Source: an uncultured bacterium (GTDB lineage Bacteria; Caldisericota; JANLFM01). Taken from it: a stretch of DNA of 64,000 nt. Shown in pieces: positions 1 to 61,762 of this stretch. The notes beneath the pieces are model-generated. The model made no database searches, was not told where the DNA came from, and saw only the letters and a list, made by a program, of their open reading frames with translations. Location of the stretch: contig CAZTNW010000001.1 in assembly GCA_964614945.1 (NCBI GenBank), forward strand, positions 30,573 to 94,572. The letters are read 5' to 3'. How positions within the stretch are numbered: position 1 is the stretch's first letter; every line of letters starts with the position of its first letter. The position numbers and the translations under genes were made by a program.

Positions 1-764
1 TCATCATTGAACCTCCAGAGCCGGTAGAACTACAACCGGAACCGATGCCACTTCAGATCATCCACGAGGACGAGGATATTATCGTAATAAATAAACCCCG
101 GGGGATTGTTGTACATCCAGGTGCCGGTCATAGCAAGGGAACTTTGGCCAACGCCCTGCTCGCAGTTTCTCCCCTCTCTTCCGTGGGAGACCGGCTCCGG
201 CCGGGCATTGTTCATAGATTGGATAAGGACACGAGCGGGCTCTTGTTAGTGGCGAAAAACGACGTCGCTCACCTTGACCTTTCCTCCCAATTCAAAAATA
301 GGACGATTGAAAAGAAATATCTGGCGTTAGTGCACGGCAGGGTGGCTGAGGACGAGGGTTTGATAGATGTTCCGCTTTCCAGGAATCGAAGGGAGCGGAC
401 AAAAATACAGCCCCAGGCCTCGGGCAAAGTGGCTCAGACAGAGTTTCTTGTGCTAGAGCGGTTTTCTTCTTATTCCTTACTCCAGCTGCGACCTTACACC
501 GGTCGCACACACCAGTTACGAGTGCACTTAGCTTTTATCGGTCATCCGATAGTGGGTGACCCTCTCTATGCAGGCTCGAATCCCTGGGGGCAAAAGGGGC
601 AGCTCTTACATGCTCATTATCTTTCTTTTCTCCATCCTAAAGAGAAGTCCCGACTGGAGCTCACTCTCCCTCCGCCGGAGGATCTTCAAAAAATCCTGGA
701 CGATCTGAGAGATGTTGACAAAGGGAAATTGGTTAAGAATAATGGGGGAGTCCAAAGAAGGTGA
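1..764 (+). CDS. rluD: 23S rRNA pseudouridine synthase, RluA/RluD family; 5' end truncated by the window edge
   Basis: The frame is open from base 3. It contains the [16 protein letters not shown] catalytic motif and runs to a stop at 762-764. Confidence 0.8.
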
Positions 765-771
765 GAGAGCT

Positions 772-1029
772 GTGATAAAACTTATAAATATAGGTTTTGG
801 CAATTTCGTCGCCGCACAGAGGGTGATTGCAATACTTTCCCCGGATTCCGCACCAATTAAACGGATAATTTCGGAGACAAGGCAGGAAAAGAAATTGATA
901 GATGCCTGCCACGGGCGGCGCACGCGTGCAGTAATAATTATGGATTCTAGCTATGTAATCCTCTCATCTGTACAGCCTGAAACCGTGGCCTCTCGTTTAG
1001 AGGCCGAGGAGGAAGAGGGCTCTCTCTGA
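772..1029 (+). CDS. remA: RemA/DUF370 family regulator
   Basis: The protein begins [25 protein letters not shown] and has the [12 protein letters not shown] motif. A GTG start at 772 follows the SD GAAGGTGA and gives the canonical [12 protein letters not shown]-terminus. Synteny with gmk-rpoZ supports the call. Confidence 0.8.
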
Positions 1030-1030: not shown

Positions 1031-1663
1031 GTGGAGCTGATTGTACCTAACCTATTGGTAGTTATCTCCGGCCCGTCAGGTGTGGGAAAGGGTTGTCTGG
1101 TGCGAGAATTGATCAATTCTCGCACGTCTGCTTATGCTCTTTCGGTTTCGGTTACGACCCGTCCTCCACGCGCAGAGGAATATGAGGGAGAGCATTATTT
1201 TTTTGTTACGAAGGAACGCTTCAGGCAGATGATAAAGGAGGAGAAGTTGCTGGAATGGGCGGAGGTCTTCGGTGATCTGTATGGAACTCCCCGCTCTTTT
1301 GTGGAGAAAACTTTGGCTTCCGGTAAAGATATCCTCCTCGAGATCGATGTGCAGGGAGCCATCAAGGTAAAAAATGCCATGCCGGATGCACTACTGATTT
1401 TTGTGCTTCCCCCGGGCTGGAAGGAACTGAGAAAGCGCTTAATGAATAGAGGGACAGAAAGCGAAGAGAAAATGCGAGAGCGTCTCGATGTCGCCCGCGT
1501 TGAATTAAAGGCTCTGCCTAACTATGATTATTTTCTCGTAAACGATAACTTGCAGGAGACCGCTCAAACATTAGAGAAGTTAATTTGTGCGGAGAAGCAC
1601 CGAGTTAGCAGATTACCCGTTACAGTGGAAGGAGGTCCCAACAAATGCTCTATCCTCCCTTAG
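1031..1663 (+). CDS. gmk: guanylate kinase
   Basis: It has the P-loop ISGPSGVGKG and lies between remA and rpoZ. Confidence 0.85.
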   Translation: MELIVPNLLVVISGPSGVGKGCLVRELINSRTSAYALSVSVTTRPPRAEEYEGEHYFFVTKERFRQMIKEEKLLEWAEVFGDLYGTPRSFVEKTLASGKDILLEIDVQGAIKVKNAMPDALLIFVLPPGWKELRKRLMNRGTESEEKMRERLDVARVELKALPNYDYFLVNDNLQETAQTLEKLICAEKHRVSRLPVTVEGGPNKCSILP

Positions 1664-1836
1664 AGGAGATGCTCAAGCTCGTAGAAGGAAATAAATACCT
1701 TTTGGTTGCCGTGGTCACCAAGCTGGCTCATAAATTGGAACAGGAAGAGAGCTTGAGGTCTGGCACGTCCCTCTCCGAGGCCTTAGAACTCATAGCGCAG
1801 AATAAAATCAGCATAGCTGAGGAAGCCACCATTTGA
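1645..1836 (+). CDS. rpoZ: DNA-directed RNA polymerase subunit omega
   Basis: The 63-aa product starts MLYPPLEEMLKLVEGNKYLLV, like RpoZ, and is followed by priA. Confidence 0.8.
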   Translation: MLYPPLEEMLKLVEGNKYLLVAVVTKLAHKLEQEESLRSGTSLSEALELIAQNKISIAEEATI

Positions 1837-3845
1837 CCGATTTCAGTGCCCAGTTCCTTGTCCTTGTTGACGTCCCTCTCCCCCCAGGGGAGGGACTTTT
1901 CTCTTATTTGAGCAAAGAACCCTTAATGGTAGGGGAGAGAGTCACAGTTCCGCTGGGAGTAAAAAATCGCTATGTTTCAGGTTATGTATTGGGAGAGGAT
2001 TCCTATGCGGGAGAGCTGAAGGAGGTTATTTCCAGATCCGGTGAAATTTTCTTCGATCGAGTGCGAGCTGCTCTCGCTCTCTGGATCTGGGAAAACTTTT
2101 ATACCAGCGCCCGTTCCCTGCTTCGCTCCCTCCTGGTCCCCCTGATCCTCGAAGCCCTTGTAGAAGTCAGATTGTCGTTAAATAAGAATGAATACATTCA
2201 ACTGTTGGACAGATTAAGCGGATACAGGGGCTATAGCCGCCTCCTCTCCTGTCTTTATGACCGCGGAGGAAGTTTGCCCTTGGCGGAACTACCAGGGAAA
2301 AATCTCCTTAATCGTGTGCTTAAAAAGGGATGGGCGCATTTAGAGAGGCTCTCCCTGATGGCTGCCGAAATCAGTCAGGATACTCTGGATGCCCGGCTGT
2401 ACTGGGCTCCCTGGGAAAAACAAGTGGATTTCCTTCTGGAGGAATTGCGCAGCGGAAAAGGAGAAGTCCGGCAATCGCTTCTTATTGTGCCAGAGAAGTC
2501 ACTGATGGCCACACTGGAGGGTTATCTCCAAAAGAAGGGTATCGACCTGCATCTTTTTTCGGCGGACAGCCCCATGAAGGATAGGCTTGCGGCTGTGAAG
2601 AAAGCCCAGGGCCAGAAAAACCTGATGCTTTTAGGAACCTGGAGCGCCCTCTTCCTCCCCTTTACTTCTTTGGGGAGGATCCTGGTGCTTCATGAGGAGA
2701 GTAAGAGGTACCGGCTCAATCATTCCCCTTCGATCCAGGTGGTTAGGACCGCAGAAGCTTTGGCACGACTCTCGGGCGCCAGGTTGAGGTTATTTTCCTG
2801 CACCCCCTCCCTGGATTCTTTTATGCATACCTTTTCTTGGCTAAAACCGATAAGAATCCCGCGACCATTTCCAGCGAGGAGAAGGGTAGTTCTTGCCCGG
2901 GAAGGACTTTCCCCTTTTATTCGCAGGGCCATTCTTAAAACGAGCTCTGCCGGAAAGAGAACGATGATCTTTCTCAATCGGCGCGGCTTCGCTAATTTGA
3001 TCATCTGCGAAGATTGCGGGGAAGATTTCACCTGCCCCATCTGTTCGGTTGCTATGACCCCTCATCGTGAGGAACTCGTTTGCCATTATTGCGGGCATTC
3101 AATCCCTATTCCCCTCCTCTGCCCCCGCTGCGGAGGAGCTCACCTATGCCCTAAGGGTCTTGGCCTGGAAGGCCTCGAAGAAATTTTAGGCGAGGACGGG
3201 ATAGGACAAAAGGTTTTCCGTATTGACGCAGGGATCACTCCCAATCAGGTGGAATTGGCTCGAAAACTGGGCTTGTTCCGACAGAGTAGGGGAGGAATTT
3301 TATTGGCCACGGGAGCCCTGATCGGTTCTTTCCTGCCCCGCGTTTCCCTCCTCGTGATTCTGAATTTAGATTTTCTCCTTCGGCTTCCTGATTTCAAGGC
3401 AACTGAGAGGGCTTATCAGCTGCTTCATAATCTGGAGCCTTTAGCAGGCGAGGAGCTTATCCTACAGGTGAGTAACTCCTATGGAATTAAAGAGCTCCTA
3501 GATGATGAAGGCTTTTACCGCCGTGAATTGGGCTTCCGCAAAGAAACGAGCTTTCCTCCCCACAGAAGGCTTCTGCGCCTCCTATTCCTGGGAAAGAAAG
3601 AGGAGGAGATCTGGGAAACGGCCCGAAGCATGCGTTCAGCCCTTGAGGAGACTACTCTGCGCGGCCAGTTAAGCGGTCCCCTGGAAGCAGTGCATTACCG
3701 ATTGCGGGGTTTCTGGCGAGTGGAGATTCTCTCTCGTTTCCCCTTGGGACCCATTCCTCCAGAGGTGCGGGAGCTGCTCCGGAACTTCTCCCTGCGCAAG
3801 GGAATGCAAATGCAAGTAGAATTGGAACCGGAGGAGCTTCTATGA
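1833..3845 (+). CDS. priA: primosomal protein N' (PriA) homologue with degenerate ATPase motifs
   Basis: It has the N-terminal 3'BD-like region and the Cys-rich Zn-binding insertion CEDCGEDFTCPIC..CHYCGH..CPRCGG. Helicase motif I reads ELRSGKGEVRQ, not GxxGSGKTEVY. Motif II reads VLHEES, not DEEH. The Arg-finger region reads LEPLAGE. Confidence 0.8.
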   Translation: MTDFSAQFLVLVDVPLPPGEGLFSYLSKEPLMVGERVTVPLGVKNRYVSGYVLGEDSYAGELKEVISRSGEIFFDRVRAALALWIWENFYTSARSLLRSLLVPLILEALVEVRLSLNKNEYIQLLDRLSGYRGYSRLLSCLYDRGGSLPLAELPGKNLLNRVLKKGWAHLERLSLMAAEISQDTLDARLYWAPWEKQVDFLLEELRSGKGEVRQSLLIVPEKSLMATLEGYLQKKGIDLHLFSADSPMKDRLAAVKKAQGQKNLMLLGTWSALFLPFTSLGRILVLHEESKRYRLNHSPSIQVVRTAEALARLSGARLRLFSCTPSLDSFMHTFSWLKPIRIPRPFPARRRVVLAREGLSPFIRRAILKTSSAGKRTMIFLNRRGFANLIICEDCGEDFTCPICSVAMTPHREELVCHYCGHSIPIPLLCPRCGGAHLCPKGLGLEGLEEILGEDGIGQKVFRIDAGITPNQVELARKLGLFRQSRGGILLATGALIGSFLPRVSLLVILNLDFLLRLPDFKATERAYQLLHNLEPLAGEELILQVSNSYGIKELLDDEGFYRRELGFRKETSFPPHRRLLRLLFLGKKEEEIWETARSMRSALEETTLRGQLSGPLEAVHYRLRGFWRVEILSRFPLGPIPPEVRELLRNFSLRKGMQMQVELEPEELL

Positions 3846-4780
3846 GATTGATCTTTTTTGGTACCCCGGAATTTGCTATTCCTTCTTTAGAGAAGCTAGC
3901 TAAACTTCACGAGATCAGCTATTGCGTCAGCAGGCTCGATAAGCCTCAGGGAAGAGGCCTCAAGCCTGCTTCTACTCCAGTAAAGGAAAGGGCGGAGAGC
4001 CTGGGGCTCTCCGTGCTGACCCCTGTTTCCTTAAAGGAGGAAGCCTTTCTGCAAATTTTGCGTTCCGCCTCACCCGATCTACAGGTTGTGGTGGCTTTTG
4101 CCATTCTTCCCCCTGAGATTCTCGCCATACCCAGATTTGGCTCGGTAAACCTCCATCCCTCTCTCTTACCCAGATACCGAGGAGCTGCACCAATCGAACG
4201 AGCGATCATGGCTGGCGAGAGTTCGACCGGTGTTTCCGTGCTTCTGCTCGAGGAATCCCTGGATCAGGGACCAGTACTGGCGCAAAGGGAGGTGGCGATA
4301 GGCGATGACGAAACTGGCGGAGAACTGAGCTCTCGCTTGGCTTTTGTGGGAGCGGAAGTCCTGGCCGAGACTGTCTCCAGCCTGGAGAAGGGTCAATTGA
4401 GGCCCATAGAACAGGACTCTCGGCTTGCCAGTTGGGCGCCCAAGATTAGAGCGCAGGATTGTGAAATCAACTGGAGGGAGGGGGCCGAGCGAATTCGGAA
4501 TTTAATCCGGGCACTGAACCCTGAGCCAGGGGCGTATACGTGTAGGTCGCTCAAAGGCAGGGCTGTTCGGATCAAAATATGGCGGGTTCGGGTCAGAAAG
4601 GATTTGACCTTAGCCCCTGGGTTCGTTCAAACCAAGGGGCTAAGCAGCCTTATCGTGGGTTGCGGAGAAGGATCGTTAGAGGTGCGGTCTTTGCAACAGG
4701 AAGGGAAGAGAATAATGGAGGCCGGAGATTTTCTCTGCGGAGGAAGAGTGGAGCAAGGAGAGATATGGGGTTCATTTTAG
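3842..4780 (+). CDS. fmt: methionyl-tRNA formyltransferase
   Basis: The product starts MRLIFFGTPEFAIPSLEKL, has the formyltransferase core and the C-terminal domain. Confidence 0.85.
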   Translation: MRLIFFGTPEFAIPSLEKLAKLHEISYCVSRLDKPQGRGLKPASTPVKERAESLGLSVLTPVSLKEEAFLQILRSASPDLQVVVAFAILPPEILAIPRFGSVNLHPSLLPRYRGAAPIERAIMAGESSTGVSVLLLEESLDQGPVLAQREVAIGDDETGGELSSRLAFVGAEVLAETVSSLEKGQLRPIEQDSRLASWAPKIRAQDCEINWREGAERIRNLIRALNPEPGAYTCRSLKGRAVRIKIWRVRVRKDLTLAPGFVQTKGLSSLIVGCGEGSLEVRSLQQEGKRIMEAGDFLCGGRVEQGEIWGSF

Positions 4781-5847
4781 ACCTGAGCTGGGAGGAGCTG
4801 GAGTCATACATTGCCGCCAAAGGCGAAAGGTTGTTTCGGGCGAAACAGATATGGGAGTGGATTTTCGAGAGATGCGAATTCTCGTTCACCAGGATGACCA
4901 ATCTCCCGACCCTCCTCAGGAGTCGATTGGCGCAAGACTTTTCCGAAAAGCGATGGCCGGCGCTCATGGATGTGCGGCGATCAAAGGATGGGACAGAAAA
5001 GTACCTCTGGCGCTTGCACGATGGAGAACTGCTGGAAAGCGTCATGCTTCACTACCAGACCTCTCAGACATCCTGGGTTTCCGCTTGCGTTTCCACTCAG
5101 GCAGGCTGCCCTGTCCGTTGTCGTTTCTGTGCTACCGGGCAGAACGGCTTCCAGCGTAACCTAAGCGCGGGAGAAGAATTGGCGCAGGTATTGCTGATGG
5201 AAGCGCACAGCGGGGAAAGAGCTTCCAGGATTCTCTTCATGGGGATGGGAGAACCCTTTCTCAACTGGCCTGAAACGCGGAAAGCCCTGATAGTTTTGCA
5301 ACATAGACAGGGACGGGCTTTAAGCAGGAGGAAAATCACTGTCTCGACCGTCGGTCCAGAGGGAATGGATCAATGTTTTTCTGCCCTTCCGCCAATAGAA
5401 TTAGCTTACTCCCTTCATGCGCCGAACGATGCTCTCAGAAACGAGCTGATTGCACGCAGCACTAAACTGCTTCCGCTTGGCCAGGCTCTATCTCTTCTAT
5501 CCGGTTATGCGATCTCCTCGGGGAACCGGGTTACCCTGGAGTACCTACTATTAGAGGGAGTGAACGATTCGCCGGAGCAGGCCATTGACCTTGTCCCATT
5601 GCTTGAAGGGAGGCCCTTTCGTCTGAACATTCTTCCTTTTAATCGGATTCCTGGCTCGGATTATCACCCTTCTTCTCCTCAGAGAACCAGGGATTTTCTA
5701 AATGCGCTGCGTCGCAGCGCGATCTCGGTTACCTTCCGCAAACCTCAAGGGGTGGATATTGCTGCGGCTTGCGGGCAGCTGAGAGGAAGTTCTTGCCAAA
5801 AGCCGCAGAAAAAGTATAATAAAAGCAGACAATGGGGTGCCCTGTAG
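4765..5847 (+). CDS. rlmN: 23S rRNA (adenine2503-C2)-methyltransferase, radical SAM
   Basis: It carries the CxxxCxxC motif (CPVRCRFCATG) and the conserved RlmN N-terminus MGFILDLSWEEL. The ATG at 4765 is preferred over the long ORF start at 4579, which overlaps fmt. Confidence 0.85.
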   Translation: MGFILDLSWEELESYIAAKGERLFRAKQIWEWIFERCEFSFTRMTNLPTLLRSRLAQDFSEKRWPALMDVRRSKDGTEKYLWRLHDGELLESVMLHYQTSQTSWVSACVSTQAGCPVRCRFCATGQNGFQRNLSAGEELAQVLLMEAHSGERASRILFMGMGEPFLNWPETRKALIVLQHRQGRALSRRKITVSTVGPEGMDQCFSALPPIELAYSLHAPNDALRNELIARSTKLLPLGQALSLLSGYAISSGNRVTLEYLLLEGVNDSPEQAIDLVPLLEGRPFRLNILPFNRIPGSDYHPSSPQRTRDFLNALRRSAISVTFRKPQGVDIAAACGQLRGSSCQKPQKKYNKSRQWGAL

Positions 5848-5920
5848 GGCTGAGAGGGATTAGTGCCGGTCCCAACCCATCGAACCTGAACTGGGTTATG
5901 CCAGCGTAGGGAAATAAATG
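5828..5920 (+). promoter_or_regulatory. TPP (THI-box) riboswitch aptamer
   Basis: The sequence GGGGUGCCC..GCUGAGAGG..ACCC..GAACCUGAACUGGGUUAUGCCAGCGUAGGGAA matches the THI-element consensus. It lies upstream of a thiamine transporter and a thiamine pyrophosphokinase. Confidence 0.8.
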
Positions 5921-5923
5921 GCG

Positions 5924-5951
5924 AGACGCTCCTATGCTGGGGGCGTTTTTC
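5924..5951 (+). terminator. riboswitch expression-platform intrinsic terminator
   Basis: A stem ACGCUCC/GGGGGCGU is followed by UUUUU and sits just before the SD GAGGAGG of thiT. Confidence 0.6.
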
Positions 5952-5969
5952 GTTGAGGAGGCAAAGATA

Positions 5970-6584
5970 ATGGATATTGGCACAGCAGGATGGCTCTCTT
6001 TTGGCGGAGCTTTAATCGGTGGAGCTCTTCTTATTCTTTTCCAGGTGAAGAAACTGACAACCAAGGATTGGGTTGAGGTTGGTGTGATGCTTGCCCTGGC
6101 CTTCGCCCTGAAATTCATTTCCAAGCAATTAATCCCCTCCTTCCGCATCTGGGCTCAAGGAGGATCGATCACCATTGCTTCCATGGTGCCCATCTTCTAC
6201 CTCTCCCTGAAGAGAGGTTGGGCGGTGGGAGCATTTGCTGGGGTGATCTTCGGCCTCTATGACTTTCTTCTCTCGCCCTATTTCTACCATCCAGCACAGT
6301 TTTTTCTTGACTACCCAATCGCTTTCGGCCTGCTGGGGATAACAGGGCTTTTTCAAAAGAATTTCGCTTTTGGTATCACCTTAGGGGGGCTGGCTCGTCT
6401 TTTCTCGCATTTCCTTTCCGGCATCATCTTTTTTGCAAGTTATGCTCCCGCCGGTTGGAATGCTTACTTGTACTCCCTAGCTTATAATAGCAGCTTCATG
6501 CTCCCGGAAATTCTTATTTCAGTATACGTTATGACCTTGCTGTGGCCTCGATTGAAGTGGGTTCAGGCTGGAAGCGGATCCTGA
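5970..6584 (+). CDS. thiT: ECF-type thiamine transporter S component (ThiT-like membrane protein)
   Basis: It is a polytopic membrane protein, and the ATG at 5970 follows GAGGAGG. It lies directly downstream of the TPP riboswitch and upstream of the TPK gene. Confidence 0.65.
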   Translation: MDIGTAGWLSFGGALIGGALLILFQVKKLTTKDWVEVGVMLALAFALKFISKQLIPSFRIWAQGGSITIASMVPIFYLSLKRGWAVGAFAGVIFGLYDFLLSPYFYHPAQFFLDYPIAFGLLGITGLFQKNFAFGITLGGLARLFSHFLSGIIFFASYAPAGWNAYLYSLAYNSSFMLPEILISVYVMTLLWPRLKWVQAGSGS

Positions 6585-7204
6585 TTTTTCTGAACGGGGA
6601 ATCAGTTCCTGTTAATTACTGGCAGGAACTGATTCCCGGGGCGCTGATCATTGCTGCCGATGGTGGAGTGAGAGCGCTCAAGCAGCGCAGCCTATTTCCC
6701 CAGGTATTGCTGGGAGATTTTGATTCGCTTGAGGAAGGAGAATTGGCGCAACTTGAACCATACATCCTGGAGGTCAGGAACTTCCCTGCAGAAAAGGACC
6801 AGACTGATGCCGAACTTGCTCTGGAGTACGCACTGTCCTCAGGCGTGAAAGAAATTGTCCTCATCGGTGGCTTGGGGAAGCGCATCGATCATGCTCTTGC
6901 GAATCTGATGCTCCTCGTGAAGATAGATTCTCAGGGAAAGAGGGGGCGGATGCTCAATCGAGAAAGCGAAATATTTTTAGTACCTGGGGAAATTCAACTG
7001 GTTCGTGAGCCAGGACAATTGATTTCTCTGCTCCCTTTAACCGATGTGGAAGGGGTGGAGGTTGAGGGGTGTCAGTATCCCCTCAATGGTGACAGTTTGA
7101 GAGTAGGGGAAACGAGGGGTATTTCCAATGCATTCATTCAAAACATAGTTCGGATAAGAAAGAAAACAGGATTGCTCCTGGCAATCCTGCCTCACAGTAA
7201 TTAG
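6542..7204 (+). CDS. thiN: thiamine pyrophosphokinase
   Basis: It has TPK catalytic-domain motifs (LIIAADGG, LLGDFDS, GGLGKRIDHALANL) and a C-terminal thiamine-binding domain. Confidence 0.8.
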   Translation: MASIEVGSGWKRILIFLNGESVPVNYWQELIPGALIIAADGGVRALKQRSLFPQVLLGDFDSLEEGELAQLEPYILEVRNFPAEKDQTDAELALEYALSSGVKEIVLIGGLGKRIDHALANLMLLVKIDSQGKRGRMLNRESEIFLVPGEIQLVREPGQLISLLPLTDVEGVEVEGCQYPLNGDSLRVGETRGISNAFIQNIVRIRKKTGLLLAILPHSN

Positions 7205-7464: not shown

Positions 7465-8121
7465 TTACTCTCCCTCTTCGGGAAAACCATACTTGCCTTT
7501 CAAGGGAACGAAGGCGCAGCGGCACAGGCTTTTCTGATGTGCTTCGCCCTGGATAATTTTAAACTGCAGGAGTTCCCCTCCACCCTGGAGATTGACCGGA
7601 CAGACCAGGATTCCTCCCTTCTTCAGCTGGGGAAATAATTGTTCGGGAATTCGCGGGGATAGGGCGGTCATAATAATTCGATCGAAAGGTGCTTCCGCAA
7701 CATACCCCTCACTGCCATCAGCTAGCAGGATTTCCACATTAGCTATTCCTAACTCCTTCAGCAAGCGCCTGGCTTTTGCCGCCAGTTCGTCGATTATCTC
7801 GGTTGCGAAAACCTTGCCTTTTTTTACGATCTGAGCCAGGATTGCAGTTTGATAGCCGGAACCTGCCCCAATCTCGAGGACCTTGTGGGTCTCTTCCAAT
7901 TCCAGCGCCTGTGTCATCAAAGAGACTATCGAGGGTTGAGATAGCGTTTGACCGTACCCGATCGGAATGGGAGAGTCGAGGCAGGCGTAATCCCACAATT
8001 TCTCAGGGACGAAATTTTTCCTCGGAACCTGCCGGAAAGCCTGTAAGACCTTTGGATCATTGATAAATCCGGTTTCTTCCCACTTTCTGATCAGCTTCTC
8101 CATTATTTTCCTTTCATCCAA
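7465..8121 (-). CDS. pcm: protein-L-isoaspartate O-methyltransferase
   Basis: It has the VLEIGAGSGYQTA SAM motif and the PCMT signature GYGQTLSQPS. Confidence 0.85.
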   Translation of the reverse strand: MDERKIMEKLIRKWEETGFINDPKVLQAFRQVPRKNFVPEKLWDYACLDSPIPIGYGQTLSQPSIVSLMTQALELEETHKVLEIGAGSGYQTAILAQIVKKGKVFATEIIDELAAKARRLLKELGIANVEILLADGSEGYVAEAPFDRIIMTALSPRIPEQLFPQLKKGGILVCPVNLQGGGELLQFKIIQGEAHQKSLCRCAFVPLKGKYGFPEEGE

Positions 8122-8942: not shown

Positions 8943-10572
8943 GCCCGAGAAAACCTCACTCAACCCCAGGCTTTCCCAGATCGATTTTCAGGTCCTTTTG
9001 TCTCTACTGGAAGGCGCAGCCCTTCACCTGGAGAAAAATAAAGAAATCGTAAATGCTCTCAATGTTTTTCCGGTCCCCGATGGGGATACCGGCACGAACA
9101 TGCATCTGACCCTTCTGTCAACACTGGAAGAGCTGAATTCTAACCATCCTCAATCGATGCGTGAGTTCGCAGAGGCACTCACCAAGGGTTCCCTTCTCGG
9201 AGCACGAGGTAATTCCGGCGTGATCCTCTCCCAGCTTTTTCGTGGGTTCGGTCGCTCGATTGACGGAAAGGAGAAACTGACCATAATCGACCTTGCTGAA
9301 GCCTTCGGAGAAGCAGCGCGGACTGCATATAAAGCCGTAATGAAACCAGTCGAGGGCACTATACTCACCGTAGCGCGGGAGGCAAGCTTAGCAGCATCTA
9401 AGGCCAAAGAAATGGATGACCTGACCGTCTTTTTAGAAGAGATCCTTTTCGCCGCGCAGGTGGCCCTGGCCAATACGCCCCACCTTCTTCCGGTACTCAA
9501 AGAAGCAGGGGTGGTCGACTCTGGCGGACAGGGACTGGTCTTTCTCATCGAAGGCGCAATTGCTAGATTGAAGGGAGTGGACCTGCCTATTGCTCAGGTT
9601 TCGCCGAAAGCTTGCATAGAAAAGGAGGAAATTTTCCGAGAGGAGCTTGACTACCGCTATGACACTCAATTTCTGATCCGGGGCTGCAATCTGGATCGGA
9701 ATGTGGTGGAGTCTCGGCTCAAACCTCTGGGCGATTCCTTATTGGTGATTGGAGGAGGAGACTTAGTAAGGGTTCATATCCACAGCAATCAGCCAACGCA
9801 ACTGCTGGAGGCCAGTGCTTCGTTTGGCTCTCTTGACCAAGTGATCATCGAGGACATGATCCGACAACATGAGGATTTCAAACAGCAGTCCCAGACAGAA
9901 AAAACTCCGGAAGGCATTGCCGTCATCAGCGTGTATGCCGGAGAAGGTTTTGAGGAAATCTTCAAGAGCCTCGGCGTTGCAGGGACAGTAATGGGGGGAC
10001 AATCGATGAACCCTTCGACTCAGGAGATCCTGCAGTCGATTGAGAACGTCAGAAAGGCGGAGGTTATTGTCCTGCCCAATAATGCCAATGTTATCAACAC
10101 GGCCCTGCAGGCCAAGAGCATGGGGAGGAAAAAAATAGCGGTAGTAGGAACTCGCAATTTGCCGCAAGGTATCGCAGCTTGCCTGACTTTTCAGAGCAAT
10201 CAGCCCTTGGAAGAGAATGTAAGAGCGATGGAACGGGCTATTCAGCTTGTTCATTGTGGTGAGGTCACTTACGCGGTGCGTGATGGCGGCATGAACGGCT
10301 TTTCCTTCCAGAAGGGGGCAATTATTGGATTTGTTGATGGTACTCTTTCTATTGTAGGCGAAGATCCACAGGAAGTCTGTCTGAAGGTTGTGGAAGAGCT
10401 GACAAAAAATACCTCGGGTGGTATAGTGGGTATCTATCGAGGGGAAGAAATTCCCGAAGAGGAAGCGGAGGACCTGCTTCAGGCTTTAAAGCAGTCGTTG
10501 CCTCTAGCAGAAGTTGATCTCCAATACGGGGGGCAGCCCTACTATTATTACGTTGTCTCCTTTGAGGAGTGA
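8932..10572 (+). CDS. yloV: DAK2-domain fusion protein YloV
   Basis: It has the N-terminal DhaL-like domain with the PDGDTGTNM motif and lies in asp23-yloV-recG synteny. Confidence 0.8.
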   Translation: MRNEPEKTSLNPRLSQIDFQVLLSLLEGAALHLEKNKEIVNALNVFPVPDGDTGTNMHLTLLSTLEELNSNHPQSMREFAEALTKGSLLGARGNSGVILSQLFRGFGRSIDGKEKLTIIDLAEAFGEAARTAYKAVMKPVEGTILTVAREASLAASKAKEMDDLTVFLEEILFAAQVALANTPHLLPVLKEAGVVDSGGQGLVFLIEGAIARLKGVDLPIAQVSPKACIEKEEIFREELDYRYDTQFLIRGCNLDRNVVESRLKPLGDSLLVIGGGDLVRVHIHSNQPTQLLEASASFGSLDQVIIEDMIRQHEDFKQQSQTEKTPEGIAVISVYAGEGFEEIFKSLGVAGTVMGGQSMNPSTQEILQSIENVRKAEVIVLPNNANVINTALQAKSMGRKKIAVVGTRNLPQGIAACLTFQSNQPLEENVRAMERAIQLVHCGEVTYAVRDGGMNGFSFQKGAIIGFVDGTLSIVGEDPQEVCLKVVEELTKNTSGGIVGIYRGEEIPEEEAEDLLQALKQSLPLAEVDLQYGGQPYYYYVVSFEE

Positions 10573-12662
10573 ACAAGTTTCTCGCCTGGCCAGAGCTGAT
10601 TTCCCCTGTTCAATACGCTAAGGGAATCGGCCCTTCTCGAGCAAGGCTTTTCGAGAAGGTTGGGGTCAAATCCCTTATCGATCTCCTCTATTACTTTCCT
10701 CGATCTTACCAAGACCGCACTCATTTTCGTCCCTTCTCTACCCTTAAGGAGGGAGACTGGGCGACCATAAAGGGAAGAGTATTAGGTGCGAGAGAGCAAA
10801 TCCCGAGGAAGGGGATCAGATTACTCAAGGTGGCCATCTCAGACGGCAGTGGTCGCCTGGAAGCAGTGTGGTTCAACCAGCCTTATCTGAAGAAAGAGTT
10901 TCCAGCTGGAGCAGAGGTTATTCTGTCCGGTCGCGTTTCCAGACGCTTCGGGCCGGTGCAGATCTCTTCTCCCGATTGGGAGATTTTGGAAGAGGATAAG
11001 GACCCCATCCATTCGGGCCGCATTGTCCCGATTTATTCGCTCACAGCAGGCTTAAAGCAGCGTGCTATGCGTCGCAAGATGAAGGACTTCATCGACAAGT
11101 ATTCGCCGCTTGTACCAGATTTTCTGCCTCCGACCATCCTGGCGCGCGAAAGTCTGATGCCTCTGCGCGTGGCTCTGAGCAAGATCCATTTCCCTGAGGA
11201 CTTCTCCGCGCTCGATGAAGCCAAACGCCGACTCATTTTCGAGGAGCTTTTTCTTCTGCAGCTAAGCTTTGCTCTACGCTGGTCGGAGCGAAAGGGAAAG
11301 CATGGTATTCCGATGAGTACAAAGGGAGAGCTGACAGGGAAATTTTTGCACGGTCTTCCTTTTCAGCTCACTGAAGGACAAAGAGATGCTCTGCAAGAGA
11401 TCGAAAAGGACATGCAAGCAAGTAAACCCATGAATCGCCTTTTGCAGGGGGAAGTGGGGTCAGGGAAGACCGTCATTGCCGCCTACGCTATGCTCGCTGC
11501 GATACAGAGCGGCTATCAGTCAGCTTTGATGGCACCAACCGAGATACTAGCGGAACAGCATTTTTTTGTATTGCAGGAGTTGCTGGAGGATTTGCCCGTG
11601 AAGATTGCCCTTCTGACGAGCGGTACCCGTTTTTCCATACGCTCCCGTTTACTTGAAGAGCTGGAAGCTGGAAGCATCGACCTATTGATCGGGACCCATG
11701 CCCTGTTAGAGGAGCGGGTCTGCTTTCGTAAGCTGGGCCTGACGGTAATCGATGAGCAACATCGATTCGGGGTCTTACAGAGAAAGATACTCGTAGAAAA
11801 AGGACAGAGCCCCGATGTTCTGGTGCTTACAGCTACCCCGATTCCCCGCAGCCTCGCTTTAACTTTTTATGGAGACTTCGACTTGAGTGTGATAAGAGGT
11901 CTTCCTCCAGGCAGGCAAAGCGTTGTCACCTATCTTGTCCATTCGGATCGAGAGACTGAGGTATTCAAATTCCTCCGCCGCCAGCTCCAGGAAGGCCGCC
12001 AGGCCTACATTGTCTGTCCAGTAATTGAGGAAAAGGATGAGGCCTTTGCCCTTCAGGCAGCCAAGGCCCTGAAGGAGAGATTGGAGACAGAGGTCTTCCC
12101 GGATTTGAAATTGGGCCTCTTGCACGGAAGGCTCAGCGCCAGGGAAAAAGATGAAGTAATGACCAGTTTCCGTCAGGGAGAGACACAGATCCTTGTCTCC
12201 ACCACGGTAATTGAAGTAGGAATAGATGTAGCGAACGCCTCAGTAATGGTTATCTGGGATGCAGACAGGTTCGGCCTGGCCCAGCTTCACCAATTGAGGG
12301 GGAGGATTGGACGCGGGCCCTACAAATCTTATTGCATCCTCATGGCGAATCCGAAAAAAGATGAGGCCCTCCAGAGACTGGATGTAATGGTGCGCATAAA
12401 TGATGGCTTCGTTATCTCGGCAGAAGACTTGAGGATTCGCGGCCCAGGAGAATTTTTCGGTACCACCCAGCATGGTGCACCGGAATTGAAGTTGGCAGAC
12501 CTGTTTTCGCCCCAGGACCAGGAGATACTCGAACGCTGCCGGGAGATAGCCTTTGAACTGGCTCACTATCAAGGTAAAAAGCTATTCAAGGATTTTCCCC
12601 TTTTAGGGGAGATGCTGAGCAGGAGGTTCCCCTTTCAAAGCGAATTTATCGAGGTCGGCTGA
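10569..12662 (+). CDS. recG: ATP-dependent DNA helicase RecG
   Basis: It has the wedge domain, Walker A GEVGSGKTVIAA and the DEQHRFG motif. Confidence 0.9.
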   Translation: MNKFLAWPELISPVQYAKGIGPSRARLFEKVGVKSLIDLLYYFPRSYQDRTHFRPFSTLKEGDWATIKGRVLGAREQIPRKGIRLLKVAISDGSGRLEAVWFNQPYLKKEFPAGAEVILSGRVSRRFGPVQISSPDWEILEEDKDPIHSGRIVPIYSLTAGLKQRAMRRKMKDFIDKYSPLVPDFLPPTILARESLMPLRVALSKIHFPEDFSALDEAKRRLIFEELFLLQLSFALRWSERKGKHGIPMSTKGELTGKFLHGLPFQLTEGQRDALQEIEKDMQASKPMNRLLQGEVGSGKTVIAAYAMLAAIQSGYQSALMAPTEILAEQHFFVLQELLEDLPVKIALLTSGTRFSIRSRLLEELEAGSIDLLIGTHALLEERVCFRKLGLTVIDEQHRFGVLQRKILVEKGQSPDVLVLTATPIPRSLALTFYGDFDLSVIRGLPPGRQSVVTYLVHSDRETEVFKFLRRQLQEGRQAYIVCPVIEEKDEAFALQAAKALKERLETEVFPDLKLGLLHGRLSAREKDEVMTSFRQGETQILVSTTVIEVGIDVANASVMVIWDADRFGLAQLHQLRGRIGRGPYKSYCILMANPKKDEALQRLDVMVRINDGFVISAEDLRIRGPGEFFGTTQHGAPELKLADLFSPQDQEILERCREIAFELAHYQGKKLFKDFPLLGEMLSRRFPFQSEFIEVG

Positions 12663-13215: not shown

Positions 13216-13718
13216 TGAAAGCAGTAGTACCTGGAAGCTTTGATCCAGTGACATTTGGTCATCTTGATGTTATTGAAAGGGCTTCTTTTATTTTTTCTGG
13301 CATCGTGGTGGCTGTGATCGATAACGGAGCTAAAAAACATCTATTTACGCTCGAAGAAAGAGCATATATGCTTGAAGAGGTGACAGCGAAGTTGCCCAAT
13401 GTACATATTGACACGTTTTCCGGCTTGCTCGTAGCATATATGAAAAAAGAGCAGGCTAACGTCATCGTACGAGGATTGAGGGCATTGTCAGATTTTGAAT
13501 ATGAACTGCAAATGGCTTTGATGAATCACGAGCTCGACCCTGGAGTGGAGACCGTTTTTCTGGCTGCTTCATTTCAATATTCTTTCTTGAGCTCCAGTCT
13601 GGTTAAGGAAATCGCCTCAAGCGGTGGTCCTGTCAGGCAATTTGTTCCACCCGTAGTTGAGGAGAGGTTGCGGGAAAAATTCAGATCGGAAAGGGGTTGG
13701 AGGAAATCGGGGTTTTAG
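13215..13718 (+). CDS. coaD: phosphopantetheine adenylyltransferase
   Basis: The N-terminus reads MKAVVPGSFDPVTFGHLD, with the T/HxGH motif. Confidence 0.9.
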   Translation: MKAVVPGSFDPVTFGHLDVIERASFIFSGIVVAVIDNGAKKHLFTLEERAYMLEEVTAKLPNVHIDTFSGLLVAYMKKEQANVIVRGLRALSDFEYELQMALMNHELDPGVETVFLAASFQYSFLSSSLVKEIASSGGPVRQFVPPVVEERLREKFRSERGWRKSGF

Positions 13719-14206
13719 AACTTCTTGACGAGATTGAGTCTTTAATTGATCAGGGCAAGAAAATTCCTTTCACGCATAATGTGACGATCAATATGGATAG
13801 GATGCTGGAGCTTCTTGATCAGATCAGAGAAGGCTTCCCCGAGGAACTTTCCCAGGCCAAATGGGTTTTGCAGGAGCGCAAGAAAGTTCTGGAAGAAGCC
13901 CAGCAGGAAGCCGAAAGAGTATTACAGCAGGCCAGGGCACAAGCCCAGGCTCTTGTTTCAGAGAGCGAAATAATCAAACAGGCGGAGGTTAAAAGCAGAG
14001 AGATCTGGGAACGAAGAGGAGAGGAAGCCAGGGCGCTGAAGCGAGATGCTGAAGCCTATGCCGAATCACTGCTGACGAAACTCGAAGGCGTCCTGGAGAA
14101 AGCTCTTACCACTGTTAAAGCAGGCAAAGGGCAACTACGAGCTTCGATCGCGCAGACCGCTCCTTCCACATCCGCCCCAGGGACAAAGTCTGGCCCTTCT
14201 GTTTGA
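13697..14206 (+). CDS. conserved coiled-coil protein of unknown function
   Basis: The central region is rich in charged residues and alpha-helical (EEAQQEAERVLQQARAQAQAL...). The N-terminus carries the motif LLDEIESLIDQGKKIPFT. There is no enzymatic motif. Confidence 0.5.
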   Translation: MEEIGVLELLDEIESLIDQGKKIPFTHNVTINMDRMLELLDQIREGFPEELSQAKWVLQERKKVLEEAQQEAERVLQQARAQAQALVSESEIIKQAEVKSREIWERRGEEARALKRDAEAYAESLLTKLEGVLEKALTTVKAGKGQLRASIAQTAPSTSAPGTKSGPSV

Positions 14207-14386
14207 ATTAAGACCTACTTAACCCCACCGTGCCGTGTGAGGGGGGGTGATGAACCTGCAACTCGCAGGTGGGTTTCCTAACCGAGCAGAGGGAGGGATA
14301 ATTCCCGTCAAGCTCTGGATCAGAATCCCTTTGTTTTTGTGTTGGCTCATACCTTTACCCTTCATCACCAACACCGCAGGGTTTTT

Positions 14387-19040: not shown

Positions 19041-19115
19041 TGGTGGAGACAGCGGGAGTTGAACCCGCAACCTCTTCCGTGCGAGGGAAGCGCTCTCCCT
19101 TTGAGCTATGTCCCC
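19041..19115 (-). tRNA. tRNA-Ala (anticodon CGC)
   Basis: The cloverleaf folds with a G3:U70 pair, an anticodon loop CUCGCAC, a T-arm GCGGG/UUCAACU/CCCGC and an encoded CCA. Confidence 0.85.
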
Positions 19116-28539: not shown

Positions 28540-28543
<4 letters not shown>

Positions 28544-30015
28544 TACTGGCTCGCGATCTGAACTCCTTGGTAATAATAAGTTAGAATCTTATCATAGGCG
28601 AGACCTTCCTCCGCTCGCGCTTTAGCTCCCCATTGTGGCATGCCGACTCCGTGCCCCCATCCCTGCCCGATGAAAGTGATCACGTCACTGGAGAGGGATA
28701 GTGAGTAGGTTTCATCTAAAGTAATCAGGCCTGTGGAACTGAGTATCGCCAAAGGGAGGGACGCGGGACTATTTCCCTGAGTGGAGAGGATGTTCAATGT
28801 ATTAGCCAAAACCTGGTGAATACCGGAGGAGGCGATCAGCGCCAAAGAAGCAGACACTCCACCGGGAGAATAATCGAGGGAGACGAGGCTTGAACGCAGA
28901 TCAGCTGCTTTCCGTAATTCTTCTCCTGTCAGGGTGGCCGTCCCTGTGGACCCGACGACCTCCAGCACCTTTACTCTCCCCGACACCCCCTTTTCCAAGA
29001 TGTTCAGCTGTTTAAAATTCCCCAATTTGATGCCTTTCTTCTCCTCCACTCTGCGCAGAAATTCGCTCGCTGTGACTGTCTGGGTCCAGCTGTAGTATTT
29101 TGATCCCTCTTCTCCGGGACTGAGCACTCCCCTCAGGTAAGGCACGGCAGAACCCTGCCAGACGTTTTCGTTGTTTTCCGTATGCCCGCCTGAACAGGAG
29201 TGAAAAGAAGCCGTTATGATCTTGCCCTCGCACATTAAAACCTGCCCCTTTGTGGCATCCACCGCTGCATTGGACTCAGGTTTTTCCACTTCATACCCTC
29301 TGTAAACTTGATCATAAATAGTGGCATTAAGGTCGTAACCCTCTACCGCGCTCTTATTTTCCTGGACTTTTTTCATAGCATAAGAACGAGAGGCCAAAGC
29401 CTGAGCCTTAAGTGCTTCAGAGTGCCAATCATGAGGCATTTCCGCAGGCACTACCCCGTAAAGATATTTTTCCAGCGCGAGGATATTGATTATCCTGAGC
29501 TCTGCCCCTCTCCAAAACAGCTCGAGGTTTCCTCTATAGCTCCTTCCATTCAGGGAAAAGGTGCAATCATCCCCCGAAGGGGACAAAAGCAGTGCCGGCT
29601 CTTCGCCCTCTCCACCCCAACCGAGATCGGAGTTTCCCGGACGACGGAAAAGCAGTGAAAAAGGGGGGGAAATTACCTCAGCTTGAGGGAACCGAGAACG
29701 AGCCTGATCCTGTGCCCGTTGAGCCTGGGACAGATCCGCGAAGGGTCCCAGAGCCAAGCTTAATCGGCGTCCTATCTCGGCCAGAACTGGCTTCCCCACG
29801 AGCTGCCAGAGCTCCTGGTGGGCTGGGACGATGCTCTCGATCTCGCCCTGGGTTCCGCAGAAGAGGGAAACCCATAAGAGGCCTGCATTTGCCCAGGCAA
29901 GTTCCAGCGATTCAGACCCTGATTGAATTTTGTTCCCGCTTGGGGATGTGACCGTGTATGGACCGGCGAACCCTGTGCTTAATGAGGTTGGATCAACCAT
30001 AAGAAGGACTCTCAC
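28540..30015 (-). CDS. SpoIID/LytB-domain protein
   Basis: It has an N-terminal signal sequence and a central SpoIID/LytB domain (YLYGVVPAEMP, SFHSCSGGHTE). Confidence 0.7.
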
Positions 30016-34989: not shown

Positions 34990-35389
34990 GGAAACCGCTT
35001 TTTTGCTTCTTTACCGTACAGATATGGGGGGAATTTCCCTCAATGAAGCGATGGAGTGCGTTGAAAAAAAACCAGATCCAGATATTTGGGAAAGAGCTTG
35101 CGCTTTGGCAAAGGCCGTGAAGGGAAAAGAAGCTGATGTCGACCAGAAGATCCGTCAATTCTCCCTGACATGGGATCTTGAGCGCATTGTCTCCACAGAT
35201 CGCAGCGTACTGCGGCTTGCCGTCTTCGAGCTGCTTTACGAAAGGAATGTTCCCGTTCCTGTGATCGTAGATCAGGCTTTAAAACTGGCACACAAATACG
35301 GGACGGACGATTCCAGCCGTTTTGTGAACGGAATCCTTGGCGCAATTGCGAGAGAAATTGAATCGAAAAAGTGTTCGGTTCATCATTAA
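34970..35389 (+). CDS. nusB: transcription antitermination factor NusB
   Basis: The product [15 protein letters not shown]... is the NusB fold, at 139 aa. Confidence 0.85.
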   Translation: MRRQKIRETAFLLLYRTDMGGISLNEAMECVEKKPDPDIWERACALAKAVKGKEADVDQKIRQFSLTWDLERIVSTDRSVLRLAVFELLYERNVPVPVIVDQALKLAHKYGTDDSSRFVNGILGAIAREIESKKCSVHH

Positions 35390-35639
35390 GGGATTTGTGC
35401 AGGGGGTTGGCTTTCGCTACTGGGTATATCGCCAGGCCGAAATTCTCGATCTCACTGGATTCGTGCGCAACAGGAAAGATGGGAGTGTGGAGGTCCTGGC
35501 TCAGGGTTCCGCTGGGCAGGTGCAGGAAATGCTCCATCTCTTGAGGCACGGCCCTCCCATGGCAGAAGTAAGCTCGGTAGAGGTCGAGGAAAATTTGGGA
35601 GAAATCCCCGCCCATTCCTTTCGAATTCGCTATGATTGA
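35337..35639 (+). CDS. acyP: acylphosphatase
   Basis: It has the motifs VRFIIKGFVQGVGFRYWV and GFVRNRKDGSVEV. Confidence 0.75.
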   Translation: MAQLREKLNRKSVRFIIKGFVQGVGFRYWVYRQAEILDLTGFVRNRKDGSVEVLAQGSAGQVQEMLHLLRHGPPMAEVSSVEVEENLGEIPAHSFRIRYD

Positions 35640-42794: not shown

Positions 42795-43508
42795 ATAAAG
42801 GAGCGACTCCCACTTAATCGTTGTCGGATTCTTATCATCAGCGGCCCTTCAGGTTCGGGGAAAAGCGAGATCAGCCTTAACCTTGCTCTTACCCTGAATA
42901 GCACCACTGAGGTAGCGTTGATCGACTTAGATATCGTTAAACCTCTTTTTCGCCTACGCAATCATCGAGCCCAGATTGATGAGTTTGGCCTGCGTCTAGT
43001 TTCACCCGGCGGAGAGTTGGACTCAGCCGATCTGCCAATTCTACCGCAGGAGGCGATCAGGTACCTTTCTTCCCCGCACAGGGCGGTTGTTGATCTGGGA
43101 GGGGAAGCAGCCGGGGCTCGCGTATTGAAGCAGTATCAAAATTTTCTCAAGGGAGGTGACGTCTGCCATTTCTTCGTAGTAAATCCCTTTCGTCCCTTTT
43201 CCCGGACAGCAGGAGAATTAAGAACTCAACTCAACGAGATTGAAAGGAGCAGTGGAGCGAGAATCGAGGGCTTGCTCTCCAATCCGCATTTGAAGGAGGA
43301 GACAACCCTGGAAATAATCCAACAAGGGCATCTCGTGGCCTTGGAGCTTTCTCAGGCTTTCAACTTGCCGATCATTTGCCTGTGCGTGAACGAGGTTTTA
43401 ACCGCTGAGGTCTCTGCGCTGATGGAGATTCCCATTTTGCCCATGAAGCTTTTTATCCAGCCTCCCTGGGTTGAGATGCCTTTAAATTGGAAGGAGGACC
43501 ATGAATAA
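42795..43508 (+). CDS. P-loop kinase-like protein (shikimate/gluconate-kinase-type fold); start codon unresolved
   Basis: The frame is open from 42765 to 43508. It carries Walker A IISGPSGSGKS, followed 17 residues later by ALIDLD. No ATG, GTG or TTG occurs in frame before the annotated TTG at 42918, which would cut off the P-loop. The only in-frame ATT, ATC or ATA codons are upstream of it. Confidence 0.45.
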   Translation: MKERLPLNRCRILIISGPSGSGKSEISLNLALTLNSTTEVALIDLDIVKPLFRLRNHRAQIDEFGLRLVSPGGELDSADLPILPQEAIRYLSSPHRAVVDLGGEAAGARVLKQYQNFLKGGDVCHFFVVNPFRPFSRTAGELRTQLNEIERSSGARIEGLLSNPHLKEETTLEIIQQGHLVALELSQAFNLPIICLCVNEVLTAEVSALMEIPILPMKLFIQPPWVEMPLNWKEDHE

Positions 43509-52120: not shown

Positions 52121-52196
52121 GGGCGGATAGCTCAGCGGTAAGAGCGCCTGCCTTACAAGCAGGAAGCCGCAGGTTCAAATCCTGCTCCGCCCACCA
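52121..52196 (+). tRNA. tRNA-Val (anticodon TAC)
   Basis: The cloverleaf has an acceptor GGGCGGA/UCCGCCC, an anticodon loop CUUACAA, a T-loop UUCAAAU and an encoded CCA. Confidence 0.85.
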
Positions 52197-58971: not shown

Positions 58972-58992
58972 ATCTTTATGATACCAAGCTCT

Positions 58993-59027
58993 AAAAAGAA
59001 AAAGCGCGGAGGGAATCCGCGCTTTTT
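58993..59027 (-). terminator. intrinsic terminator (bidirectional in form) after the minus-strand gdh gene
   Basis: The hairpin GCGCGGAGGGAAUCCGCGC is flanked by an A-run upstream and a T-run downstream. It lies only 21 nt from the start of the 990-aa gene. Confidence 0.6.
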
Positions 59028-59052
59028 CTTTAGTCCGCGCTTATCAGGTTGG

Positions 59053-60339: not shown

Positions 60340-60491
60340 AACTATCTCCTTCGCCGAACTTGATGTGTTTTTAGAACAAAAAGAGGAATGGAATACTTCC
60401 ATTGCCCCTTACTTAATTGTATGATATCCGAAGGCATTGTCAAGGAATTCTCCTACTCTGCTTTACTTGGTTTTGCGCTCCTCTGCCTGGG

Positions 60492-60529: not shown

Positions 60530-60606
60530 GGGGTCGTGGTGTAGCGGTCTAACATGCAGGCCTGTCACGCCTGAGATCGCGGGTTCAATTCCCGTCGACC
60601 CCGCCA
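60530..60606 (+). tRNA. tRNA-Asp (GTC)
   Basis: The cloverleaf has an anticodon loop CUGUCAC, an acceptor GGGGUCG/CGACCCC and an encoded CCA. Confidence 0.85.
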
Positions 60607-60613
60607 CTTAAGC

Positions 60614-60689
60614 GCCGAGGTAGCTCAGTTGGTAGAGCAGTGGACTGAAAATCCTCGTGTCGGCAGTTCGATTCTGCCCCTCGGCACCA
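60614..60689 (+). tRNA. tRNA-Phe (GAA)
   Basis: The anticodon loop is CUGAAAA and the T-loop is UUCGAUU. The anticodon stem has one U-U mismatch. CCA is encoded. Confidence 0.8.
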
Positions 60690-60820
60690 TCTTTCCCTCA
60701 GGCCAAGCACCTCTATCCTGTTCATTATTGACCGGCTCTGAGCATTTCCTTAGAATAGGCTTGAGCGTCTCCCCCGCTGGACTGATTGTGTAAGTTCTCC
60801 AAGATGAAGGGGCATTTTGA

Positions 60821-60896
60821 GCGGGAATAGCTCAGTCGGTAGAGCATCAGCTTCCCAAGCTGAGGGTCGCGGGTTCGAGTCCCGTTTCCCGCTCCA
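60821..60896 (+). tRNA. tRNA-Gly (CCC)
   Basis: The anticodon loop is UUCCCAA, the acceptor is GCGGGAA/UUCCCGC and CCA is encoded. Confidence 0.85.
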
Positions 60897-60904
60897 AAGA
60901 GAGA

Positions 60905-61748: not shown

Positions 61749-61762
61749 CTTTCGCTTGAAAC

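Follow-up and report, generated by a model that had tools for sequence, protein, structure and literature searches.

Within a stretch of 64,000 nucleotides from an uncultured bacterium (GenBank assembly GCA_964614945.1, contig CAZTNW010000001.1, positions 30,573 to 94,572 of the forward strand; GTDB lineage Caldisericota, JANLFM01), referred to here as the window, the gene at 1833-3845 (+) encodes a homologue of PriA whose helicase motifs have been dismantled. In nearly all bacteria, replication forks that have been abandoned are restarted by PriA, and the need for its helicase motor has long been debated: the priA300 allele of Escherichia coli argues that the motor is largely dispensable, whereas the PriC pathway and phage Mu argue that it is required. 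We consider it probable, at about 0.72, that the window protein is an ATP-independent scaffold for fork recognition and helicase loading, a pseudohelicase that has become fixed in an uncultivated lineage; comparisons of sequence, predicted structure and evolution support this reading.

The loss of the motor was read motif by motif, in a register set by aligning E. coli K-12 PriA with the window protein, six orthologues and a set of canonical PriAs (all features of the gene lie on the + strand). At the position of Walker A the window protein has W191-A-P-W-E-K-Q197-V198 (2403..2426), which aligns to E. coli G224-VTGSGK230-T231; in E. coli numbering K230 has become Q (Q197) and T231 has become V (V198). 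A first-pass annotation, made from the letters of the window and its open reading frames (ORFs), had described motif I as degenerate and had read it as ELRSGKGEVRQ. Walker A is indeed absent, but the segment named was the wrong one: residue-by-residue alignment to E. coli PriA ruled out ELRSGKGEVRQ (residues 204-214; 2442..2474), a GK look-alike some 12 residues downstream, which falls on the helix that follows the P-loop. With the register corrected, the case for a missing Walker A is, if anything, strengthened. The other two motifs named in that annotation were degenerate where it had placed them. Walker B falls in exact register, D320-E321-E322-H323 of E. coli corresponding to L286-H287-E288-E289 (2688..2699), with D320 replaced by L, E321 by H and H323 by E; in motif VI the canonical QVAGRAGR is represented by N533-LEPLAG-E540 (3429..3452), where E. 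coli G583-R584-A585-G586-R587 equals P536-L537-A538-G539-E540, and both arginines are gone (R584 to L537, R587 to E540).

The damage extends to the remaining motor elements. The Q-motif segment, approximately 25-36 residues preceding motif I, is absent. Motif III reads FSCTPS instead of GSATPS (A357 to C; 2793..2810) and motif V reads ATGALIGS instead of GTQMxAKG (E. coli Q540 to G494; 3303..3326); in the equivalent of the aromatic-rich loop (residues 294-301; 2712..2735) the coupling tyrosine of E. coli, Y335, which is required there for helicase activity (PMC5175346), is I301. Motif Ia (LVPE) is kept, as is motif IV, FLNRRG (residues 380-385; 2970..2987), whose N382, R383 and G385 do not vary in any alignment; D438 is conserved, and T482 and H483 are not. 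The positions that we take to form the SSB-tail pocket (SSB being the protein that binds single-stranded DNA) and the PriB-docking site of Klebsiella pneumoniae PriA had no clean mapping to E. coli numbering and were not used. A Pfam scan of the protein, judged at gathering score, returned no match to DEAD (PF00270), Helicase_C (PF00271) or ResIII (PF04851). Other ATPases encoded in the same window have normal motifs, RecG with GEVGSGKT and QLRGRIGR and also RuvB and RecN, so the degeneration is specific to PriA. By the alignments, every class of residue that serves ATP binding or hydrolysis has been lost. Since a single K230R or K230A change is sufficient to abolish the activity of E. coli PriA (PMC4504706, PMC5175346, PMC5778457), we infer with confidence that the window PriA is without ATPase activity, and hence would neither translocate on DNA nor unwind it.

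The protein is nevertheless a PriA, as first annotated. Searched with phmmer against the sequences of the PDB it gave PriA matches only (E. coli PriA 8fak_H at E = 7e-39; K. pneumoniae PriA at about 7e-39), it matched the NCBIfam model TIGR00595 (priA) at E = 4e-64, and three Pfam domains scored above cut-off. An AlphaFold2 (AF2) model built from a 49-sequence alignment had a mean predicted local distance difference test (pLDDT) of 90.7 and a predicted TM-score (pTM) of 0.89; in a Foldseek search of this model against the PDB the nine best matches were all PriA, headed by 8fak_H (E = 5.8e-44, TM 0.74/0.77), and other SF2 helicases followed some 35 orders of magnitude behind. By Pfam, AF2 and Foldseek the six-module architecture of PriA is kept: a 3' DNA-binding domain (3'BD), a winged helix, two RecA-like lobes, a cysteine-rich region (CRR) of the Cys4-Cys4 type and a C-terminal domain (CTD). 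The 3'BD (residues 1-105; 1833..2147) matches PF17764 PriA_3primeBD over residues 10-100 (24.6 bits against a cut-off of 22.7), holds the clade signature VPLPPGEGLFSY, and is modelled as a β-rich domain with strands within residues 6-72 and a pLDDT above 90. The winged-helix region (residues 106-185; 2148..2387), with AF2 helices in 118-164 and strands in 147-172, is the least conserved module, and most canonical PriAs have a longer one. RecA-like lobe 1 (residues 186-345; 2388..2867) has, by alignment, AF2 and Foldseek, kept its fold and lost its catalytic motifs. Inserted in lobe 2 is the CRR (residues 391-436; 3003..3140; PF18319 Zn_ribbon_PriA, 27.5 bits against 26), whose two Cys4 zinc sites are formed by C392, C395, C401, C404, C417, C420, C430 and C433, all eight invariant in every alignment. 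The CTD (residues 571-670; 3543..3842) matches PF18074 PriA_C over residues 576-666 (28.5 bits against 26.9). The earlier description of an intact N-terminal DNA-binding region and an intact Cys4-Cys4 module therefore agrees with both the domain scores and the conservation of the cysteines.

The question of whether close relatives have the same degeneracy could be addressed with seven orthologous sequences at 42-70 % identity. When 5.8 billion proteins were searched through a word index, four close relatives came out, at 100 %, 70 %, 44 % and 42 % identity, and none of these has a helicase Pfam domain; the next match, at approximately 33 % identity in local BLASTP, was a canonical PriA, and the canonical matches (P0005 onwards) almost all carry DEAD, ResIII or Helicase_C domains. 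Similarly, HMMER with a clade profile, run exhaustively over 1.84 billion representatives, recovered four clusters at E <= 1e-219, followed by a gap to 1.5e-82. A further clade member, missed by the word-indexed search, lies on JANLFM010000013.1 (GCA_024655865.1). All clade orthologues examined have the same substitutions as the window protein, and the seven sequences agree without exception at W191, W194, Q197, L286, E288, E289 and L537; since these residues occupy the former active site, their invariance suggests that the old nucleotide cleft has taken on a new structural role.

The organisms concerned are known from metagenome-assembled genomes (MAGs). NCBI labels the clade proteins "Coprothermobacterota bacterium" or "bacterium", and the neighbouring RecG proteins "Caldiserica/Caldisericota" and "Coprothermobacterota". 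The sole match among GTDB representatives is the MAG binchicken_co18_491 (locus L009), from a co-assembly targeting the taxon JANLFM01, and the lineage takes in the type MAG of that GTDB placeholder. The motor-dead PriA typifies a small, deep and uncultivated lineage, the phylum placement of which is taken from the MAG labels.

Within this lineage the modules of PriA have not been conserved evenly. We compared the mean pairwise identity of each module in the clade with that in 4,863 pairs of canonical PriAs at equal overall divergence, approximately 42 %. The motor is less conserved in the clade than in the canonical pairs (RecA lobe 1, 0.43 against 0.54; RecA lobe 2, 0.46 against 0.53), whereas the 3'BD (0.44 against 0.32), the CRR (0.61 against 0.46) and the CTD (0.44 against 0.29) are more conserved; the largest rise is seen in the CRR and CTD, and no module of the clade is more conserved than the CRR. 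Judged by these identities, constraint has shifted from the motor to the modules that bind DNA and partners. In the cryo-electron microscopy structure of E. coli PriA with PriB and a fork, the CRR, HD2 and CTD frame a pore around the single-stranded DNA (ssDNA) of the lagging strand, and it is on the CRR that the next primosome protein docks (PMC10175261).

If the window PriA is a scaffold of this kind, the 3'BD, the winged helix, the surface of lobe 1 and motif IV would recognise the abandoned fork or D-loop, and the CRR, lobe 2 and CTD would hold the lagging-strand template; bound PriA would then recruit the replicative helicase, directly or via a loader, without ATP turnover. Removal of the nascent lagging strand, or the unwinding that provides an ssDNA template, would fall to other enzymes, for instance the RecG and RuvAB encoded nearby. 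An intact recG (10569..12662, +; DEAD, ResIII and Helicase_C in Pfam), encoding a fork-remodelling helicase, lies 6.7 kb downstream of priA, and an intact ruvABC is also found within the window.

That fork binding and helicase recruitment are retained is less firmly indicated than the loss of ATPase activity, and is argued by precedent from D. radiodurans PriA and the E. coli alleles priA300 and K230A. The PriA of Deinococcus radiodurans, although devoid of ATPase and helicase activity, binds both forks and DnaB (PMC4504706). In E. coli, the K230R and K230A proteins have no ATPase, helicase or translocase activity and still assemble the primosome, loading DnaB where the lagging strand of the fork is single-stranded (PMC5778457, PMC10175261); K230A was shown to load DnaB in vitro (PMC10175261), and priA300 (K230R) is nearly wild type in vivo (PMC5778457). 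Several points weigh against our interpretation. The case for the clade proteins is drawn from sequence, predicted structure and precedent. None of the loader genes looked for, namely those for DnaB, DnaC/DnaI, DnaD, PriB, DnaT and DciA, is present among the approximately 50 ORFs of the window, and our view of the genome spans 64 kb, with a second, canonical priA possible elsewhere. The helicase-dead priA allele of E. coli depends on PriB, and for Bacillus subtilis a review still regards the need for PriA motor activity in restart as unclear (PMC10804225). Finally, the TIGR00595 score of 216.9 bits falls below the equivalog cut-off of 230.35, and for this reason members of the clade are named "hypothetical protein" by NCBI; the records so named are MCX5976890.1, MCX5970243.1, MEI6308319.1 and MGB9553119.1.

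Some of these points would equally suit a neofunctionalised protein, that is, a PriA-derived binder of DNA structures or a regulator acting outside restart, with restart itself carried out by another, canonical PriA or along a route that needs no PriA. The stem branch leading to the clade is long (0.52 in a neighbour-joining (NJ) tree), the old active site carries new clade-specific motifs (W-x-P-W-x-x-Q and L-[HQ]-E-E), and both the equivalog score and the 64-kb view of the genome leave room for such a change of function. However, the gene has not moved: the order remA-gmk-rpoZ-priA-fmt-rlmN-thiT-…-recG is kept in every locus (L001-L010), with priA in its usual position between rpoZ and fmt and coupled to both neighbours, and from this we conclude that the window gene is the orthologous housekeeping priA and not a stray paralogue. 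The rpoZ-priA-fmt neighbourhood is typical of Firmicutes-like genomes. Against neofunctionalisation stand also the modules for fork binding and partner docking, all of which survive and show higher conservation than their canonical counterparts, and the lack of any second PriA-like gene in the 64-kb window; bacterial genomes normally carry one priA. We regard a function outside restart as unlikely, and favour an ATP-independent restart scaffold.

Much less probable still is that some hydrolysis of ATP or another nucleotide persists at a non-canonical site and that the window PriA remains a motor. K196 adjoins the position of the old P-loop lysine, a GK dipeptide is present at residues 208-209, and the acidic pair E288-E289 is invariant. 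However, the column of K196 reads K, K, V, Q, E, D, E in the clade, and the GK dipeptide is absent from P0003, P0253, P0254 and L010; there are no P-loop glycines, no Mg-binding aspartate and no arginine fingers, the Q-motif segment is deleted, and in E. coli PriA, as noted, one change at K230 is enough.

The motor-dead state is itself maintained by selection, to judge from the coding sequences. All orthologous priA ORFs are intact, and dN/dS (the ratio of nonsynonymous to synonymous substitution rates) is 0.09 between the window gene and its 70 %-identical orthologue L006 and 0.15 between L003 and L009, with dS saturated in these comparisons. The in-frame WAPW has been preserved through synonymous changes, whereas the other frames run into stops in L006, L003 and L009; two public assemblies that are independent of each other, ERR6222542 and DRR438494, agree at 100 % in the DNA of priA. 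Common replacements, intact ORFs, low dN/dS, stops in the alternative frames and identical DNA in two assemblies together indicate purifying selection and not decay. A frameshift hiding the canonical motifs, a scenario which the first-pass annotation had named as able to overturn it, was tested and excluded: the +2 frame of the window does read GSLGKT over the old Walker A codons, but this reading is not conserved and the alternative frames contain stops in the orthologues, and in frame the window protein aligns colinearly with E. coli PriA to the left and right of each motif. An assembly error, a local frameshift or a decaying pseudogene, for which GSLGKT in the window alone could be cited, is thus effectively refuted by that colinearity, by the identical DNA of independent assemblies, and by seven orthologues with intact ORFs, the same substitutions and dN/dS of 0.09-0.15.

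The +2 frame merits a separate observation. The codons TGG GCT CCC TGG GAA AAA CAA at 2403-2426 yield G-S-L-G-K-T when read in that frame, of which the GKT part is not conserved; in every orthologue the WAPW codons, shifted in this way, give G-S/A-L/M. The resemblance may be due to chance, or it may be a weak relic of an ancient frameshift from which WAPW originated.

A natural PriA pseudohelicase has been demonstrated experimentally in Deinococcus (Lopper, Boone and Morrow, 2015, PMC4504706), and a review from 2017 describes PriA helicase activity as conserved "except in Deinococcus" (PMC5778457). In the literature surveyed we found none documented outside Deinococcus-Thermus; the first-pass statement that ATPase-dead PriA proteins are known from few lineages is borne out, that literature documenting this one (PMC4504706, PMC5778457). 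The D. radiodurans and other Deinococcus-Thermus proteins are like the window PriA in their full-length architecture, in keeping the CRR and DNA-binding domains and in the degeneracy of motifs I and II, and by analogy the window PriA would be expected to have their motor-free fork binding and recruitment of the replicative helicase. The extent of the loss differs. By that paper's description, the Deinococcus-Thermus PriA keeps a recognisable P-loop, with Lys to Arg in GKT (PMC4504706), whereas the P-loop of the window protein has been replaced outright by WAPWxxQ, with Q at the position of the lysine; the window PriA has also lost the Q-motif segment, motifs II, III, V and VI and the tyrosine of the aromatic-rich loop. 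The lineage differs too, being that of uncultivated MAGs labelled Coprothermobacterota, Caldisericota or JANLFM01. An independent origin is likely, with MAG labels indicating a different phylum and the Deinococcus protein known here by description.

Two other comparisons place the window protein. The E. coli K230R and K230A proteins are single-residue laboratory mutants of a canonical enzyme, reliant on PriB and DnaT, whereas the loss in the window PriA is natural, ancient, spread over several motifs and fixed in a lineage. Canonical PriAs (TIGR00595; structures 4NL4, 6DGD and 8FAK) have the same six modules, the CRR in lobe 2, the FLNRRG motif and the gene neighbourhood in common with it; the window protein differs in being without all of the residues for ATP binding and hydrolysis, in its shorter winged-helix region and in a TIGR00595 score under the cut-off.

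The window clade is not the only group of PriAs with degenerate motifs. Among the best 150 representatives we found approximately 14 further clusters (at 50 % identity) of full-length PriAs without the Walker A lysine and/or the motif VI arginines, namely P0259, P0261, P0275, P0279, P0284, P0287, P0318, P0323, P0326, P0329, P0350, P0359, P0400 and P0401, a list biased by the degenerate profile used as the query. One of them, P0350, represents "primosomal protein N'" of Candidatus Fermentithermobacillaceae (HHY76568.1). As in the window clade, the CRR is present in these clusters (for example P0350, P0261, P0275, P0279, P0287, P0326, P0359, P0400 and P0401); they differ from it in the residues that replace the motifs, and in most of them the motif V GTQ and some of the Q-motif region survive. 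By distance they mostly lie closest to canonical PriAs, a pattern suggesting that the motor was lost several times independently, apart from the loss in the window clade. In the NJ tree one degenerate cluster, P0279, is placed as sister to the window clade; since by distance it lies closest to canonical PriAs, we read this placement as a probable case of long-branch attraction.

These clusters lead us to a broader and more tentative proposal, which we hold to be possible and on balance doubtful: loss of the PriA motor, far from being peculiar to Deinococcus, may have recurred in many uncultivated lineages, and in the window clade the pocket may have been rebuilt as a conserved Trp-rich structure, W191-x-P-W194-x-x-Q197 together with L286-[HQ]-E-E, that perhaps plugs the cleft and locks the lobes. 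Were this so, the protein would be a constitutively restart-ready fork sensor, working without ATP and without the conformational switch of the E. coli type.

The gene itself is a single unbroken ORF of 670 amino acids, running from a TTG start to its stop at 1833-3845 (+). It is preceded by a rpoZ-like ORF of 63 amino acids (1645..1836, +), whose orthologue in L003/L010 matches PF01192 RNA_pol_Rpb6; the stop of this ORF (1834-1836) and the start of priA overlap by 4 nt. A Shine-Dalgarno sequence, GAGGAAG (1819..1825, +), was read directly from the DNA, with 9 nt between the end of its GAGGA core (1823) and the TTG. At the other end, the priA stop and the start of fmt (methionyl-tRNA formyltransferase; 3842..4780, +) share the 4 nt ATGA (3842-3845), and priA is translationally coupled to both neighbours. 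A public gene call, P0001 (639 aa, Logan), takes the internal ATG at 1926 as its start and so loses 31 conserved residues of the 3'BD. Every orthologue conserves residues 1-31, containing VLVDVPLPPGEGLFSY, which in the AF2 model make up the first 3'BD strands, and the TTG at 1833 is therefore assigned as the correct start; the Shine-Dalgarno sequence, the 4-nt overlap with rpoZ and the gene calls of the orthologues, which span 664-670 aa, also back it.

The remainder of the window provides a number of observations on the organism. A thiamine pyrophosphate (TPP) riboswitch at 5828-5924 (+; Rfam, 63.1 bits) lies directly 5' of two thiamine genes, 5934-6584 and 6542-7204, which encode a ThiT/YuaJ-type thiamine transporter and thiamine pyrophosphokinase, a layout conserved in related loci. 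A 6S RNA (RF00013, 66.6 bits) at 14218-14385 (-) adjoins hisS. Between rpmB and asp23 is a gene for protein-L-isoaspartate O-methyltransferase (PCMT; 7465-8121, -), which is found also in L001, L012 and L013; as it is absent at the equivalent position from L003-L005 and L010, it is a lineage-specific insertion or loss. Two adjacent large PPDK_N proteins (PEP-utilising, ATP-grasp) are encoded at 53675-56002 and 55999-58971, both on the - strand, the second having a weak receiver-like N-terminus; the pair is flanked by paralogous Glu/Leu/Phe/Val dehydrogenases at 52325-53683 (+) and 59053-60402 (-), the whole region extending over 52325-60402. Three ORFs of 169-196 aa, 13697-14206 (+), 35040-35615 (-) and 42918-43508 (+), had no Pfam match; the position of the first of these after coaD is conserved in L001, L003, L010 and L012. 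Proteins with SpoIID, RemA-like, DivIVA and SLH domains are encoded at 28540-30015 (-) and 712-1029 (+) and in L001 at 1-1523 and 5586-6044, and this set is Firmicutes-like, and possibly represents envelope genes of a diderm type, despite the Coprothermobacterota/Caldisericota labels. Seven tRNA genes were found in the window (60530-61749 (+), 19041-19115 (-) and 52121-52196 (+)), of which five (Asp, Phe, Gly, Cys, Leu) are clustered, and no rRNA was found in the window.

The pseudohelicase type of PriA is already known from Deinococcus; what is new here is a motor-dead PriA in a lineage separate from it, with a lesion far more complete. The "hypothetical protein" names given to the clade expose a gap in the annotation of motor-dead PriAs, and a census of such proteins across uncultivated bacteria would be worthwhile. 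The clade also offers a candidate for a minimal, nucleotide-free PriA in structural work on fork recognition. If the reading of its sequences is right, it would constitute a natural experiment, one in which fork recognition and helicase recruitment would stand out as the indispensable functions of PriA.

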